This document shows, one piece after another, positions 9,001 through 14,599 of a DNA stretch of 64,000 bases. Location: NCBI GenBank assembly GCA_963794325.1, contig CAWCDG010000002.1, positions 32,001 through 96,000 of the forward strand, written 5' to 3'. The position numbers and the translations under genes are program-made. Each line of letters begins with the position of its first letter. Position 1 is the stretch's first letter. This DNA is from an uncultured delta proteobacterium (GTDB lineage: Bacteria > Desulfobacterota > Binatia > Binatales > Binataceae). The notes under the pieces were generated by a model that was not told the DNA's origin, did not search any database, and worked only from the letters and a program-made list of their open reading frames with translations.

Positions 9001-9963
9001 CTACTCGATTTTGTAGAGCTTTCGCTTTCGCCACAGTGTCGAGACGTTGATGCCGAGTGCTGCGGCGGCCTCTTCCATAGTCGAGCTCGCCTTCAGTACA
9101 GCTATGATATGCGTGCGCTCGACCTCTTCGAGACTGGTGAGCGGTCTCCCTTCAGTTATGGTGCGACGTTGTCTGGCAGCTAGAACCACCTCGGGCAGGT
9201 GCTCTTCTGTGATGAGATCGTTTGTGCAGAGCACAGCCGCACGTTCGATCGCGTTTCGCAACTCCCGGAGATTGCCGGGCCAGTGATAGTTCGCCATGAC
9301 TGCAGTAGCTCCAGCCGATAAGTGCAATCGGTCGCGAACATTGCGAATCGCAGTATGCGCCAGCAGATGCGCGGCCAGGACAGGAATATCCCAGCGGCGT
9401 TCAACCAGCGTGGGAATTCTCAAAGCTATAACGTTGATCCGGTAAAAGAGATCGCTGCGGAAACGTCCAGCCGCTACCTCCCCGCCAAGATCGCGACTGG
9501 ACGCTGCGATGATTCGAACGTGCAAACCCGAAGAGGGCAAATCGACAAGAGATTGCCGCTCTTCGACGAACTGCAGAAGCCTGGCCTGAGCGGCGGGAGG
9601 GAGGTCAACAAGATTGTCCAAAAGCAAAGAAGCGGAGTCCGAAACATTGCTTCGGTCGCCGCGATCGGCATGCAAAGCGGCCAGCGTGTGCCTTAAGTCC
9701 TCGAAGGGATCGCTTTCGTGAACGTGCTCGGACATCGCTGCACAGTCGACGCTTAGAAATGGTGCGTCGCTTCGTCGACTCCATCTATGAATTTGGCGCG
9801 CAAAGGCGCTCTTGCCGGTGCCGCTGTCGCCGGTCAGTAGGATGGTAGCATTGGCCAAGGCGGCTCGGTGCGCGGCTTCCATAAAGTCGATCATCAAGCG
9901 GCATCGACTCTCAAGCAGAAGCTCCTCTTGGTCCGCGTGCGTCGGGTGGGTCTGGGACGCCAT
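9001..9963 (-). CDS. Degenerate sigma54-interacting AAA+ regulator with Fis-type HTH, no sensory domain
   Basis: GDSGTGKS, FRSDLFYRINV, WPGNLRELRNAIER and C-terminal HTH. GAFTGA absent, Walker B reads LLLDNL. Start uncertain. Confidence 0.85.
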   Translation of the reverse strand: MASQTHPTHADQEELLLESRCRLMIDFMEAAHRAALANATILLTGDSGTGKSAFARQIHRWSRRSDAPFLSVDCAAMSEHVHESDPFEDLRHTLAALHADRGDRSNVSDSASLLLDNLVDLPPAAQARLLQFVEERQSLVDLPSSGLHVRIIAASSRDLGGEVAAGRFRSDLFYRINVIALRIPTLVERRWDIPVLAAHLLAHTAIRNVRDRLHLSAGATAVMANYHWPGNLRELRNAIERAAVLCTNDLITEEHLPEVVLAARQRRTITEGRPLTSLEEVERTHIIAVLKASSTMEEAAAALGINVSTLWRKRKLYKIE

Positions 9964-10073
9964 CAGTGTTTCAATCGCAGCCTCCCCCTCCTCGCTGTCA
10001 TTAGGTCCTACGAGGCCCTGCGGATAAATCCTCCGCCTGGATGTCCTGGGCTCGTGAAAGTGTTGGCCGTGGC

Positions 10074-11084
10074 TCACGCCATTAAGTAGAGAGCGCCGAA
10101 GCACAGCGCCATCAGTGGAAATCCGGCGACCAAGCCGATGCGAGCCCATTCGCGGCTCGAAATTCCCAAACGTTGAGCGGCGACGATATTCGGGATGTTG
10201 CCGGGAATCAGCATGCCGCCGCTGATCAGCAGCCCCATCAGGATGCTGCGCTGCTGTGCAACAGACAGCGAAGGACCAATCTCCGCCGCGGTAAGCGTGG
10301 CGTTATCAACCACCGCTGAAATCGAGTTCAGCCAGAACAGCACGCTCTGCGGCAACTGCCGGATGTAGATGTCGACCAGCGGGCGCAATCCCCATGACAG
10401 GCCAACCAGCCCCGCCACAAACAGGTAAACCTTCCCGGCGCGGATAAAAATCTCGGACCAGTTCTCCGTGTGAGCGTCTGCCTTCAGCGAATGCCCGTAC
10501 CTTGCCGGCAGGAACAGACTCAGAATACCGACGATTACTATTCCGATAACGACCAATGGCCCCAGCAATCGCGCGAGGTACCAGAAGTCGGCCCCGAGCG
10601 CTGCGATCGCGATAGTGCCCAGTGGTTCACCTACCGGGGTGAGCGCGGCGCCCAGCCCGATCGCAAAACAGGCCAGCACGACGGCTGCTATCTCGCTTCG
10701 GCGGTCGAGCTTCAGCAACGCTATCGCCTCGACCAAAACCAGGGCCGCTATCACCGCCGTAATCACACTCGAGAGCAGTCCCAGGGCGATGATCAAACCA
10801 AAATAAATCCAACGCGGCTCGACGATCTTCACGAGGCGCTCCACTCCACCGTCGAGCCATGGCCGCACCAGCCGCACGACCACGCCAAAGACCAGGACTG
10901 CAATGGTCAAGGCTATCGGTTCGGTCGCTGCCGCGCGGAACAACTCGCGCCCCCACTGCCCGCTAATCGCAGATGCAAAGGCGCCGACGACCAGGAAGAA
11001 AACTTCTATATTCTGTCCGATCGGCTCGAACATCACCGGACCGAGCAAGACGACGAGTAGAATCGCTCCTAACCCATAGACCAT
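10074..11084 (-). CDS. DUF1646-family multi-pass membrane protein (possible ion transporter)
   Basis: Many TM segments. GLGAALTPVGEPL, SAVVDNATLTAAEI and GGMLIPGNIPNI motifs. Confidence 0.8.
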   Translation of the reverse strand: MVYGLGAILLVVLLGPVMFEPIGQNIEVFFLVVGAFASAISGQWGRELFRAAATEPIALTIAVLVFGVVVRLVRPWLDGGVERLVKIVEPRWIYFGLIIALGLLSSVITAVIAALVLVEAIALLKLDRRSEIAAVVLACFAIGLGAALTPVGEPLGTIAIAALGADFWYLARLLGPLVVIGIVIVGILSLFLPARYGHSLKADAHTENWSEIFIRAGKVYLFVAGLVGLSWGLRPLVDIYIRQLPQSVLFWLNSISAVVDNATLTAAEIGPSLSVAQQRSILMGLLISGGMLIPGNIPNIVAAQRLGISSREWARIGLVAGFPLMALCFGALYLMA

Positions 11085-11118
11085 CAGCAGACCGCTCGAA
11101 AAACTGGGCCTGGCCCGC

Positions 11119-11457
11119 TCAGATCGCGCTATCGCCGTGTTCGTTGGTGCGAATCCGAATGACGTCCTTGAGGTCGGTGACGAAAATCTTGCCGTCGCCG
11201 ATTTTTCCGGTGTGCGCCTTGAGCTTGATTGCGTCGATCACAGCCTCGTACTGGTCATCCTTGACTACCAGCTCAACTTTCAACTTGGGCAGAAAGTCGA
11301 CCACGTATTCCGAGCCACGGTACAGTTCGGTGTGCCCCTTCTGACGACCGAATCCTTTCACCTCGTAAACCGTCATGCCGGTGATACCGAGACTCTGAAG
11401 CTCCTGCTTTACAGAGTCCAGGGTGAATGGCTTGATGATCGCTTCGATTTTCTTCAT
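11119..11457 (-). CDS. glnK: Nitrogen regulatory protein PII (GlnK/GlnB)
   Basis: [38 protein letters not shown], 112 aa. Named glnK because it is linked to amtB. Confidence 0.95.
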
Positions 11458-11493
11458 CTGGTTTTCCCCATTGATGCTTGGAGTGTTCGACAC

Positions 11494-11667
11494 CTAGGCT
11501 GCGGGCGCGCGCCAAATCAGCCAGCTCACAGCAATCACAACGCCTGCGGAGGCAGGTATCAGCGGCGCGCCAAACATGATCGCCCCGGCTCCAGCAGCTA
11601 TTGCCGCCGTGATGGTTAGCGCCATGTAGCGCGTGCGGCTCAGGACGGTGATTTTATTGATTGCCAC
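11494..11667 (-). CDS. 57-aa small membrane protein (not in ORF track)
   Basis: MAINKITVLSRTRYMALTITAAIAAGAGAIMFGAPLIPASAGVVIAVSWLIWRAPAA. GTG start overlaps the TPR gene stop (TAGTG) and it fills the gap to glnK. Confidence 0.65.
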   Translation of the reverse strand: MAINKITVLSRTRYMALTITAAIAAGAGAIMFGAPLIPASAGVVIAVSWLIWRAPAA

Positions 11668-12164
11668 TATTCCCGCCTTTTCCTGCGCAACAAACCGGCG
11701 AAGTCAGGCCGCCACGCGAGTCGAGGCGCGCGATGCTCCTCGACGGCGAGCAGATCGCGCGCGATTTTCTTCTCCGCAGAGGTTTCCGCCAAATCCAGCG
11801 CGGTCTGCAATTCTTCCTTCGCCTTTTTTGGGACACCGACGCGCTGATACAGTTCAGCCATTCGCAGATGAGGATAAAAGTTTCGCGGTTGGAGACTGAT
11901 GGCGGTCTCCAGTGCCCGCTCGGCTGCCGGTATATCCAGCGCCTTGGTCAGCGCGATGCCAAGTGCCAAATATCCCATGAATGACTCGGCATCGATCTGC
12001 ACCGTTTGCCTCAGGAGGCCGACCGCCTCATCGATGTGGTTACGCTCCAGTGCATCGATCCCGCGCGCCAGTAGTGCGTGAGCATCTCGTACGATTGGCG
12101 TGGGTCGCTTACCATCCATCGAAGCAGACGAGTCGGTCACTCCTGATTGTAGAGCCGTTTCCAT
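11667..12164 (-). CDS. Tetratricopeptide-repeat protein
   Basis: Repeated helical motifs (GYLALGIAL..AERALETAISLQPRNFYPHLRMAELY). Confidence 0.8.
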   Translation of the reverse strand: METALQSGVTDSSASMDGKRPTPIVRDAHALLARGIDALERNHIDEAVGLLRQTVQIDAESFMGYLALGIALTKALDIPAAERALETAISLQPRNFYPHLRMAELYQRVGVPKKAKEELQTALDLAETSAEKKIARDLLAVEEHRAPRLAWRPDFAGLLRRKRRE

Positions 12165-13984: not shown

Positions 13985-13997
13985 CGAAGTTTTCCCC

Positions 13998-14177
13998 TCA
14001 GGCTTTCCAGATCGCGTCTTTGAGGTGCGCGCTATTGAGAATTCCGATAGACCCGAACAACGCAATGACAAATCCTGCCACCGCGACCAACAGCTGCGCG
14101 TACACCCCCGGCACTTTCACGCTCAGGACGGCTATGAACCATCCGAGCACACAAACTAAAAGACCAAGAATCTTCAT
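13998..14177 (-). CDS. 59-aa two-TM small membrane protein (not in ORF track)
   Basis: MKILGLLVCVLGWFIAVLSVKVPGVYAQLLVAVAGFVIALFGSIGILNSAHLKDAIWKA with strong GGAGGAG RBS. Confidence 0.8.
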   Translation of the reverse strand: MKILGLLVCVLGWFIAVLSVKVPGVYAQLLVAVAGFVIALFGSIGILNSAHLKDAIWKA

Positions 14178-14254
14178 TTCTCCTCCCTCGATTTGACTTC
14201 GGTTCTGAGCACCGACTAACTGGCTCGTCTTTCTTTGTTTGGGACGCCGACTGG

Positions 14255-14431
14255 TTACGGCGCGTTATTCTCGAGCGGTTTGATCCGATAGAACCAAATG
14301 CATGCAGCGATGAGACATACGAGTCCTACTAATGTGAAGATCGGCCCCAACGCGAAAAGTCCACCCACGAAAAATGTGAACCCGATGACGAAAATCAGTA
14401 GCGACCAGCCTTGTTCCCTATTCGCACCCAT
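14255..14431 (-). CDS. 58-aa two-TM small membrane protein
   Basis: MGANREQGWSLLIFVIGFTFFVGGLFALGPIFTLVGLVCLIAACIWFYRIKPLENNAP with GGAGG RBS. Confidence 0.75.
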   Translation of the reverse strand: MGANREQGWSLLIFVIGFTFFVGGLFALGPIFTLVGLVCLIAACIWFYRIKPLENNAP

Positions 14432-14522
14432 TGAGTGAATCCCTCCATTGCATTTCTGCCGGAATTCTCTGAGCCGGATGCCGACTCGAAGCCTTCCGGA
14501 CAAGATGAGACGCTAGCGACAT
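14418..14522 (-). CDS. Possible 34-aa leader ORF of the amt operon
   Basis: AGGAGG 7 nt upstream of ATG 14522. MSLASHLVRKASSRHPAQRIPAEMQWRDSLNGCE overlaps the next start by 14 nt. Confidence 0.4.
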   Translation of the reverse strand: MSLASHLVRKASSRHPAQRIPAEMQWRDSLNGCE

Positions 14523-14582
14523 TTGATGGCCTCCTGAAAAGAATGCAAACTGCGATGAAAATGTTTGTCGATGGATGCGTAG

Positions 14583-14599
14583 TGCAACGCGTATGCCAG
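14583..14599 (-). promoter_or_regulatory. Sigma54 (-24/-12) promoter for the amt operon
   Basis: CTGGCATACGCGTTGCA: GG-N10-GC with TGGCA and TTGCA cores. Confidence 0.75.

Follow-up and report, generated by a model that had tools for sequence, protein, structure and literature searches.

Ammonium transporters of the Amt family are canonically homotrimers, and to our knowledge the PII protein GlnK is their sole established partner. The glnK-amtB operons that are controlled by NtrC have sigma54-type promoters. For other transporters, a number of small proteins act as accessory subunits or regulators, among them KdpF, AcrZ, MgtS and CydX, and we know of no example of a small subunit of the KdpF or AcrZ type in the Amt family. 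In Methanosarcina mazei, the 61-amino-acid protein sP36 mediates the binding of GlnK1 to AmtB1, and it is reported to be a cytoplasmic protein that moves to the membrane upon ammonium upshift (PMC10714827). In human RhCG, an extra N-terminal helix (M0) lies in the monomer interface (bioRxiv 10.64898/2026.09.17.752382). Here, we describe an amtB locus in a window of 64,000 nucleotides (nt) from an uncultured delta proteobacterium of the Binataceae (contig CAWCDG010000002.1, positions 32,001 to 96,000; assembly GCA_963794325.1), in which the genes of four small membrane proteins, sp1 to sp4, and of a tetratricopeptide repeat (TPR) protein are interleaved with amtB and glnK.

All four small open reading frames (ORFs) are real genes, and across two phyla the small proteins are strictly tied to a single AmtB clade. 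We consider that they and the TPR protein may serve a distinct Amt subfamily as dedicated subunits with an accessory or regulatory role, encoded in a nitrogen-regulated operon, and we give this reading a probability of about one half. The features that concern it are the following (positions in the window).

14583..14598, minus strand: sigma54-type -24/-12 promoter element TGGCATACGCGTTGCA (TGGCAT-N5-TTGCA), read in the sequence 167 nt 5' of the sp1 ATG
14255..14431, minus strand: sp1, 58 amino acids from the conserved ATG, two hydrophobic helices; core part
13998..14177, minus strand: sp2, 59 amino acids, two hydrophobic helices; core part
12281..13984, minus strand: amtB, 567 amino acids (PF00909, E 1.4e-102)
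12173..12265, minus strand: sp3, 30 amino acids, single helix; Binatia-specific
11667..12164, minus strand: TPR protein, 165 amino acids (Pfam TPR_2, TPR_11); core part
11494..11667, minus strand: sp4, 57 amino acids, hairpin of two hydrophobic helices, GTG start
11119..11457, minus strand: glnK, 112 amino acids, PII protein (PF00543, E 2.6e-33)

Four small genes in an amtB operon

The preliminary description of this DNA had placed these genes, and two further ones 3' of glnK, in a single minus-strand series downstream of a sigma54 site, and the ORF list, the sequence and Pfam bear out both strand and order. The intergenic gaps within the series measure 8-80 nt, with 13 nt from the sp2 stop to the amtB ATG and 15 nt from the amtB stop to the start of sp3. 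A ribosome-binding site or a stop/start overlap had been claimed for each small ORF and was found for all four: Shine-Dalgarno sequences of the GGAGG or AAGGAG type lie 5' of sp1 (GGAGG), sp2, amtB and sp3, and the GTG start of sp4 overlaps the stop codon of the TPR gene by 1 nt. The glnK Shine-Dalgarno is weaker (GGGGA); a clear one is absent from the TPR gene, which starts 8 nt past the sp3 stop. In the ORF list sp1 appears as an 82-amino-acid version with a TTG start. Terminator and sigma70 promoter scans of the locus returned no more sites than shuffled sequences and no convincing internal terminator, and an Rfam scan at E <= 1 gave just two sub-threshold chance matches. The source genome was found to hold three genes for Amt and two for PII proteins, and no second copy of the small proteins; glnK was not found within the 15 kb examined at the other two Amt genes.

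The small ORFs are taken as real genes because their frames, starts and stops are kept, because they are syntenic and because their ratios of non-synonymous to synonymous change (dN/dS) are about 0.16-0.20. In seven loci of the same genus (AmtB 79-100% identical), start, frame and stop of all four are kept, the exceptions being one frameshifted locus and the locus L040, where sp4 was not detected. The median dN/dS in these loci (Nei-Gojobori) is 0.16 for sp1, 0.19 for sp2, 0.20 for sp3 and 0.19 for sp4; it is 0.18 for the TPR gene and 0.07 for each of amtB, glnK and DUF1646, a membrane protein gene 3' of glnK. The excess of synonymous over non-synonymous change was significant by Fisher test in 3/3 pairs for sp1, 3/3 for sp2, 2/2 for sp4 and 1/3 for sp3. 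Conservation beside amtB and purifying selection, whose absence the preliminary description had counted among the grounds for refuting its reading, were both checked, the former in 27 Binataceae loci, and both came out in favour of the genes.

Each of the small proteins has its own conserved features: the N-terminus MGANxxQGW and the C-terminus FYRIKPLE in sp1, an invariant GW in helix 1 and a C-terminal H..A.WK in sp2, a C-terminal KPGKSIFDK in sp3, and a turn AP(L/I)(I/V)P between the helices of the sp4 hairpin. None of the four matches a Pfam or NCBIfam family above its cut-off, and sp1 and sp2 are unrelated by profile-profile comparison (probability 0.5%). An assignment of sp1 to DUF3040 (PF11239) was rejected, the best score being 20.7 bits against a cut-off of 24.7 with a match confined to the hydrophobic hairpin. 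In public data sets sp2 makes up 232 clusters at 90% identity, unnamed or hypothetical; the label of MnhG antiporter subunit that some copies carry in one source is taken as spurious, and the ESM Atlas holds only unnamed clusters of 59-60 amino acids. Among 1.84 billion cluster representatives, an sp1 profile gave 106 matches at E <= 1e-3, including fusions of sp1 with sp2. Many of these matches have 55-68 amino acids, start with MG/MA-AN..QG and end with K(I/C)KP(L/W)E, and the five clusters that carry an organism name are all labelled Terriglobia or Terriglobales.

The 27 Binataceae loci were collected by a TPR-profile scan of species-representative genomes, followed by profile searches on six-frame ORFs. 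The order sp1-sp2-amtB-sp3-TPR-sp4-glnK is found in 24 of them; two of the others (L053, L070) are cut by contig ends, and the third (L068) lacks sp4 even after profile iteration. Wherever its position is covered, sp1 is present. Likewise, sp3 is present in all 30 Binatia loci that cover its position, but in none of 14 loci from the class Terriglobia; an iterated profile detects sp4 in 25 Binataceae loci, in all four loci of a second Binatia family, in 10/14 Terriglobia-class loci and not in L068. DUF1646 lies 3' of glnK in 23/27 Binataceae loci, and a close homologue of the degenerate activator gene that overlaps it in the window occurs in 7/27, all from close relatives. Two loci have, in the place of this activator, a second amtB paralog 3' of DUF1646 on the same strand (L048, 7449-9107, 47% identical; L067, 8373-9683, from an unpublished genome).

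Among 151 genomes drawn from the family Binataceae, 42 have an sp2 match, and these fall in 15 of 30 genera. A draw of 151 genomes of the class yielded sp2 in 5 same-family genomes, in 4/17 genomes of the second family and in none of 116 genomes of 17 other families. The four loci of the second family read glnK-sp1-sp2-amtB-sp3-TPR-sp4, without DUF1646; glnK is upstream of sp1 in three of the four, and amtB is frameshifted in one. The placement of glnK therefore varies, being 3' of sp4 in Binataceae, 5' of sp1 in 3/4 loci of the second family and variable in Terriglobia. Since glnK moved and DUF1646 is absent from the second family while the order of the core is unchanged, we conclude that the six-gene core sp1-sp2-amtB-sp3-TPR-sp4 has stayed together as a unit across two Binatia families. 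DUF1646 and the degenerate activator had been counted as parts of the module. They are absent from the second family and from the Terriglobia-class loci, and they are lineage-specific neighbours outside the core. At the level of the phylum, a TPR-profile search returned generic TPR matches only, and a broad sp1 profile run on a sample of 301 genomes gave two borderline partial matches outside the source genome and found no module outside Binatia.

In several loci from metagenome-assembled genomes (MAGs; L060, L061, L071, L104, L118/L132 and L038), amtB, and sometimes the TPR gene or glnK, lies in 2-6 frameshifted pieces next to intact small ORFs, which may be due to assembly error or to real decay.

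Three genomes are flagged as unpublished: G019 (L039/L067), G488 (L055) and G474 (L062). No conclusion depends on them. They contribute 1 of the seven same-genus loci and of the dN/dS medians, 3 of the 27 Binataceae loci (21/24 complete cassettes come from published records), 3 of 26 loci in the promoter survey, 3 each of the 30 sp3 and 25 sp4 loci, and 3 of 31 loci with 1 of 16 carriers in the kinase-regulator survey. They further make up 3 each of the 42 sp2 genomes and the 39 genomes with the AmtB type, and 1 of the five genomes of the same family in which the class draw matched sp2. L039 is a row of alignments A1-A5; the unpublished genomes were excluded from alignments A6-A10, the complex prediction and the tree.

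Coupling to one AmtB subfamily in two phyla

The second phylum with this cassette is the Acidobacteriota. For the class Terriglobia, a draw of 201 genomes was centred on G677, a MAG titled Terriglobales. An sp1-like ORF was found in 17 of these genomes, followed on the same strand by sp2 and then amtB in 16; the 17th is cut by a contig end. All 14 loci that could be extended read sp1-sp2-amtB-TPR, with an sp4-like hairpin in ten and with glnK nearby. Two sub-types can be told apart. In ten loci the TPR protein has a C-terminal hydrophobic helix, sp4 follows 3', and sp1 and sp2 are separate; in the other four, sp1 and sp2 are fused in one ORF of about 129 amino acids, the TPR protein lacks the helix and there is no sp4. 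Such fusions also occur in the library proteins P0194 and P0201. Between the phyla the small proteins are 30-50% identical and the gene order is kept. Neither a sigma54 element nor a kinase-regulator pair was found in the 14 loci. G677 itself carries a 1.6-kb contig (L053) with amtB-sp3-TPR whose AmtB is 98% and whose TPR protein is 83% identical to those of the window; this is probably a piece of a Binataceae genome that was binned wrongly, and no acidobacterial copy.

The AmtB of the window is a full member of its family (PF00909 343.9 bits, cut-off 23.2, profile positions 1-399; TIGR00836 361.4 bits, cut-off 343.3). The twin histidines of the pore, H297 (DFAGSGVVH) and H456 (ISVHG), are invariant in 23/23 cassette AmtBs; the corresponding pair in E. 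coli is H168 and H318 (PMC3604715). A signal-peptide-like start and a Pro/Ala-rich stretch lead into a periplasmic extension of about 85 amino acids (KGDPGG...), in which P65, G73-D74-P75, G77, G81, D85, D90, K92 and G94-L95 are invariant in both Binatia families. This extension is not unique to the cassette clade, because paralogs of 47-51% identity align from near the N-terminus. Cassette AmtBs of the Terriglobia class are 68-77% identical to that of the window, and paralogs from the same genomes 28-54%, a span also given as 37-54%. A quick maximum-likelihood tree of 42 rows, which left out three rows of fewer than 430 amino acids, the three unpublished loci and pieces matching under about 400 query residues, puts all 36 cassette-linked AmtBs on one side of a branch with a Shimodaira-Hasegawa-like approximate likelihood ratio test (SH-aLRT) value of 99. 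Judged from their sequences, the cassette-linked AmtBs are one distinct subfamily.

The coupling was read from an AmtB search of the same genome draws at E <= 1e-180. The AmtB type is present in 39/151 genomes of the Binataceae family, and 39/39 carry sp2. Three further genomes have sp2 matches: G520, with amtB in frameshifted pieces, G470, with a partial remnant, and G548, whose match is weak and probably spurious. The match in G470 (C5, 36416-36487; model positions 36-59, E 1e-7), a genome without a cassette-type AmtB at E <= 1e-180, may be what is left of a lost cassette. In the Terriglobia class 19 of 201 genomes have the AmtB type, and all 17 testable loci carry sp1/sp2: 16 were already sp1-positive, and in G837 sp1 and sp2 were detected by a broader profile. 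Two were excluded, the gene in G700 starting at a contig end and G677 holding the probable mis-binned fragment. Among the loci of both draws whose upstream DNA is present, none was found to have the AmtB type and lack sp1/sp2.

Such a pattern could also arise if the small proteins and the TPR protein were co-regulated with AmtB and physically separate from it, serving some other membrane function under nitrogen limitation within a block that moves and is regulated as one. The block does look mobile: AmtB keeps 68-77% identity across phyla, the distribution is patchy (42/151 family genomes and 17/201 Terriglobia-class genomes), and a recent transfer can preserve order without any selection on it. 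However, amtB lies inside the set, the internal order was kept while glnK and DUF1646 came and went, and the co-occurrence is complete in both directions wherever it can be tested. Moreover, the small proteins have diverged to 30-50% identity between the phyla with their order intact, which favours long-term selection. We therefore regard a separate function as quite improbable.

Predicted assembly, nitrogen control and alternative roles

Evidence that bears on a physical association comes from a complex prediction with an AmtB(100-567) monomer, sp2 and sp3 (alignments of 22-23 rows each), in which sp3 was the scored partner. The sp3-AmtB prediction scored 0.70, and the best of three controls 0.00. 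This mark is reached by 58/80 solved complexes and 2/110 mismatched pairs, a calibration that is only rough here because custom alignments and three chains were used. The runs share at least 72% of their contacts, with a partner predicted local distance difference test (pLDDT) value of at least 75. The predicted contacts fall on AmtB residues 382-392, 420-443, 469-472 and 492-493, and the modelled sp3 runs along the AmtB helices from what we read as their periplasmic ends, where its N-terminus lies, to their cytoplasmic ends, where the KPGKSIFDK tail lies; this fits the positive-inside rule. There is a possible covariation between AmtB and sp3 (M431 with M11, against V431 with V/I11), which rests on about two events. 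The model supports, and does not demonstrate, a docking of sp3 on AmtB. The helices contacted we take to be M7 and M9, mapped by the E. coli helix boundaries. A literature statement on trimer-interface helices was found for NeRh50 only, where M6/M7 line the monomer-monomer cleft, and none was found in PMC3604715. The predicted sp3 site may thus lie in or beside the inter-subunit cleft, or it may be an artefact of the absent neighbour subunits. Complex modelling with AmtB, as the preliminary description had proposed it for the trimer and each partner, has therefore been carried out in part: sp3 reached 0.70, for a monomer and as the single scored partner.

The TPR protein (TPR_2 34.2 bits, cut-off 27; TPR_11 27.2 bits, cut-off 26.8; three repeats) is conserved from near an invariant Met16, and by this pattern the true start may be Met16, giving 150 amino acids. 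Its alignment shows a conserved PTPIVRD in the N-terminus and WRPDF with a basic tail at the C-terminus. In the model (mean pLDDT 83.8, and above 95 for residues 30-140), the first 27 residues or so are disordered, six helices form the repeats and another caps them, and WRPDF is followed by a short C-terminal helix. A C-terminal hydrophobic helix is present in 10/14 Terriglobia-class loci. Foldseek relates the model to peptide-binding domains of three TPRs at E about 1e-6 (consensus TPRs, Sgt2/SGT, Hip, IpgC).

This likeness to chaperone and adaptor TPRs, together with weak sub-cut-off NCBIfam matches to SycD/LcrH-type chaperones and to LapB, raises the alternative that the TPR protein and the small proteins are biogenesis or quality-control factors, which would aid the insertion, trimerisation or turnover of AmtB and be neither stable subunits nor regulators of transport. 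The membrane-anchored TPR proteins LapB and YfgM do act in assembly and quality control, and the coupling to a single AmtB clade with a conserved N-terminal extension would fit a dedicated assembly need. However, the TPR fold matches are generic, Amt proteins assemble alone in heterologous hosts, and we know of no dedicated Amt assembly factor. Tight spacing and a stop/start overlap are commoner for proteins made in a fixed ratio, and the sp3 prediction gives a defined and confident interface. A role in biogenesis is, on balance, unlikely.

The genes on either side of the cassette bear on its regulation and on a further alternative.

10074..11084, minus strand: DUF1646 membrane protein, putative transporter (PF07854, E 3.6e-94); Binataceae-specific neighbour
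9001..10149, minus strand: enhancer-binding protein homologue, degenerate (Pfam Sigma54_activat and HTH_8), overlapping DUF1646 by 76 nt
14803-15540, minus strand: response regulator of the NarL/LuxR type (Pfam), probable start Met36, near 15435
15438-16616, minus strand: HisKA_3 histidine kinase (Pfam), multi-helix

A sigma54 element with at least 8/11 consensus positions lies 66-183 nt 5' of sp1 in 26/26 Binataceae loci, and one with at least 9/11 lies within 250 nt 5' of sp1 in 23/26, a level that 1.4% of 5200 mononucleotide shuffles reach. For the second Binatia family, the best such element is 5' of glnK. GlnK itself (PF00543 114.9 bits, cut-off 25) has a canonical T-loop with a modifiable Tyr51. 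Induction by nitrogen limitation is inferred from the sigma54 promoter and the linkage to glnK. The enhancer-binding protein (PF00158 117 bits, cut-off 20.2) has no receiver domain and keeps HTH_8. That it is degenerate, as had been read from the sequence, is confirmed by alignment to ZraR (1ojl), in which GAFTGA is replaced by HTLAAL and the Walker B DE by DN (LFLDEI to LLLDNL); lacking both GAFTGA and the Walker B Glu, it is not to be filed as an active sigma54 activator. DUF1646 is a clear family member (PF07854 316.4 bits, cut-off 21.4). The response regulator is conserved from Met36, and because its conserved part begins there, the overlap of about 100 nt with the kinase gene is probably an artefact of the longest-ORF call.

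The kinase-regulator pair sits directly 5' of the sigma54 promoter. Its homologues are found directly 5' and in the same orientation in 16/31 Binatia loci, including 3/4 of the second family. In the kinase, several membrane helices are predicted, and Pfam recognises no sensor domain. These observations would fit a transceptor module, in which AmtB would report ammonium through the TPR protein and the small proteins, and in Binatia the output could be the adjacent kinase and regulator. In addition, the solved proteins nearest in sequence are two sensor Amts, Ks-Amt5 (6eu6, E 6.7e-60) and Sd-Amt1 (8qj3, E 4.3e-54), and E. coli AmtB ranks behind them (E about 1e-31). However, the receptor N1/N2 signature QX6EX15NX2D[F/T]X54-60TX2[S/T], as given in PMC11152129, was found in 0/23 cassette AmtBs: Q, E and N are present and D-[F/T] reads V-Y (NFMVY). 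A fused transducer is absent: about 15 residues follow the Amt domain, and Pfam detects no domain besides it. About half of the Binatia loci and all 14 of the Terriglobia class lack the kinase-regulator pair. The twin histidines and other pore residues are kept, as is the linkage to glnK that is typical of assimilatory Amts. The sensing variant of the preliminary description is therefore weak, and a transceptor strikes us as a distinctly unlikely role for the cassette.

Three side observations concern more distant parts of the window: an adjoining pair of DUF433 (with a helix-turn-helix) and DUF5615/PIN-like ORFs at 7672-8666 on the minus strand, which resembles a toxin-antitoxin pair; a further PIN-domain ORF at 16890-17393; and a 763-amino-acid ORF at 5349-7640 on the plus strand with a twin-arginine-like N-terminus (RREFIKGL...).

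Under the reading that we prefer, in which these proteins are dedicated subunits, accessory or regulatory, they could work together as follows. The two hairpins of sp1 and sp2 may act jointly as a four-helix unit, since natural fusions join them (4/14 Terriglobia-class loci). The single helix of sp3 would pack peripherally on those AmtB helices that face the lipid, and its conserved basic tail would be at the cytoplasmic face, as in the model. The TPR protein would be a cytoplasmic adaptor tethered to the membrane, in Terriglobia by its own C-terminal helix and in Binatia probably via sp3 and/or sp4; sp4 would add another hairpin, one that accompanies the sub-type with a tethered TPR protein. 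Most likely, these accessory proteins would assemble around the AmtB trimer under nitrogen scarcity and tune its stability, its activity or its closure by GlnK. Since the tails IKPLE, AIWK and KPGKSIFDK and the TPR groove would all be at the face where GlnK docks, modulation of AmtB/GlnK appears to be the most likely role. We infer the physical association of the parts, with one in-silico prediction, that for sp3, to point to it, and likewise the effect on transport or GlnK control.

Several points weigh against this interpretation. Its base consists of genes and one in-silico model, of which the genetics is established. Related genomes are not independent, so that fewer independent observations underlie the work than the counts of genomes imply, and the high identity across phyla suggests the transfer of a whole block, whose order could be kept for a time without selection. 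Because sp3 is absent from Terriglobia, it is not essential to the AmtB type. The site predicted for it might be altered, or already taken, in the real trimer, because the model is of a monomer and M7 is contacted; the partners used as controls were modelled at low pLDDT (37-51) and may not be membrane helices; and the sp3-contact residues of AmtB differ between lineages with and without sp3 at 5/23 positions, against a background of 81/451. Finally, the model of a natural sp1-sp2 fusion consists of four long helices with a mean pLDDT of 65, too weak for any statement on packing. Order, selection, co-occurrence, fusions and the sp3 prediction nevertheless favour the claim that an Amt system has the small ORFs and the TPR protein among its accessory parts, and this claim stands without DUF1646 and the activator, which lie outside the module.

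A bolder version, which we consider doubtful, would make AmtB the core of an obligate hetero-oligomer, an AmtB trimer with sp1/sp2 units, sp3, sp4 and a membrane-tethered TPR adaptor, in which the extra parts gate the channel, replace or modify the GlnK plug, or might couple ammonium flux to signalling. Were this true, it would be a new mode of ammonium-uptake control in abundant soil bacteria (Terriglobia, Binatia).

Comparison with known ammonium transport systems

The module described here comprises four unassigned families of small membrane proteins and a TPR adaptor, coupled to one AmtB clade in two soil phyla that are abundant but little studied. Literature searches on amtB together with small proteins or TPR proteins, and on ammonium transport in Binatota, with supplements outside the search, turned up no description of it. 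If the complex forms, it would constitute a new layer of ammonium acquisition and control in soils, and a function could be assigned to small-protein families that are now hypothetical or unnamed. The natural fusions and split variants are ready-made test constructs.

Among the systems with which the cassette can be compared, the sensor Amts Ks-Amt5 and Sd-Amt1 have the closest solved structures by sequence. However, they have fused kinase or diguanylate-cyclase modules and the N1/N2 signature, and the cassette AmtB has neither. RhCG offers a likeness to sp3 in its helix M0, since both would add a helix to an Amt/Rh core near the inter-subunit cleft, and the modelled sp3 may correspond to M0. 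M0 belongs to the same polypeptide in a eukaryotic Rh protein, whereas sp3 is a separate gene product with a predicted site.

With KdpF, AcrZ, MgtS and CydX, the small proteins share a length of 30-60 amino acids, one or two helices and the link to a transporter, and sp3 in particular would fit this type if the model holds. They differ from these proteins in having no sequence relation to them, and in that four small proteins and a soluble adaptor go with one transporter. The only precedent that we found for a small protein dedicated to the Amt-GlnK system and linked to nitrogen is sP36. Unlike sP36, sp1-sp4 are hydrophobic integral membrane proteins of bacteria, their genes lie within the amt operon, and a TPR protein goes with them, a distinction drawn by description only.

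Finally, the cassette resembles the glnK-amtB operon of E. coli in the intact pore residues of its AmtB, in the canonical PII protein encoded in the same operon and, in Binatia, in the sigma54-type promoter. It differs from that operon in gene order, with amtB before glnK, three genes between the two and two genes before amtB, and in the proteins that it encodes, namely an AmtB that belongs to another clade and carries about 85 additional periplasmic amino acids, and five extra proteins that are conserved and strictly coupled to it.

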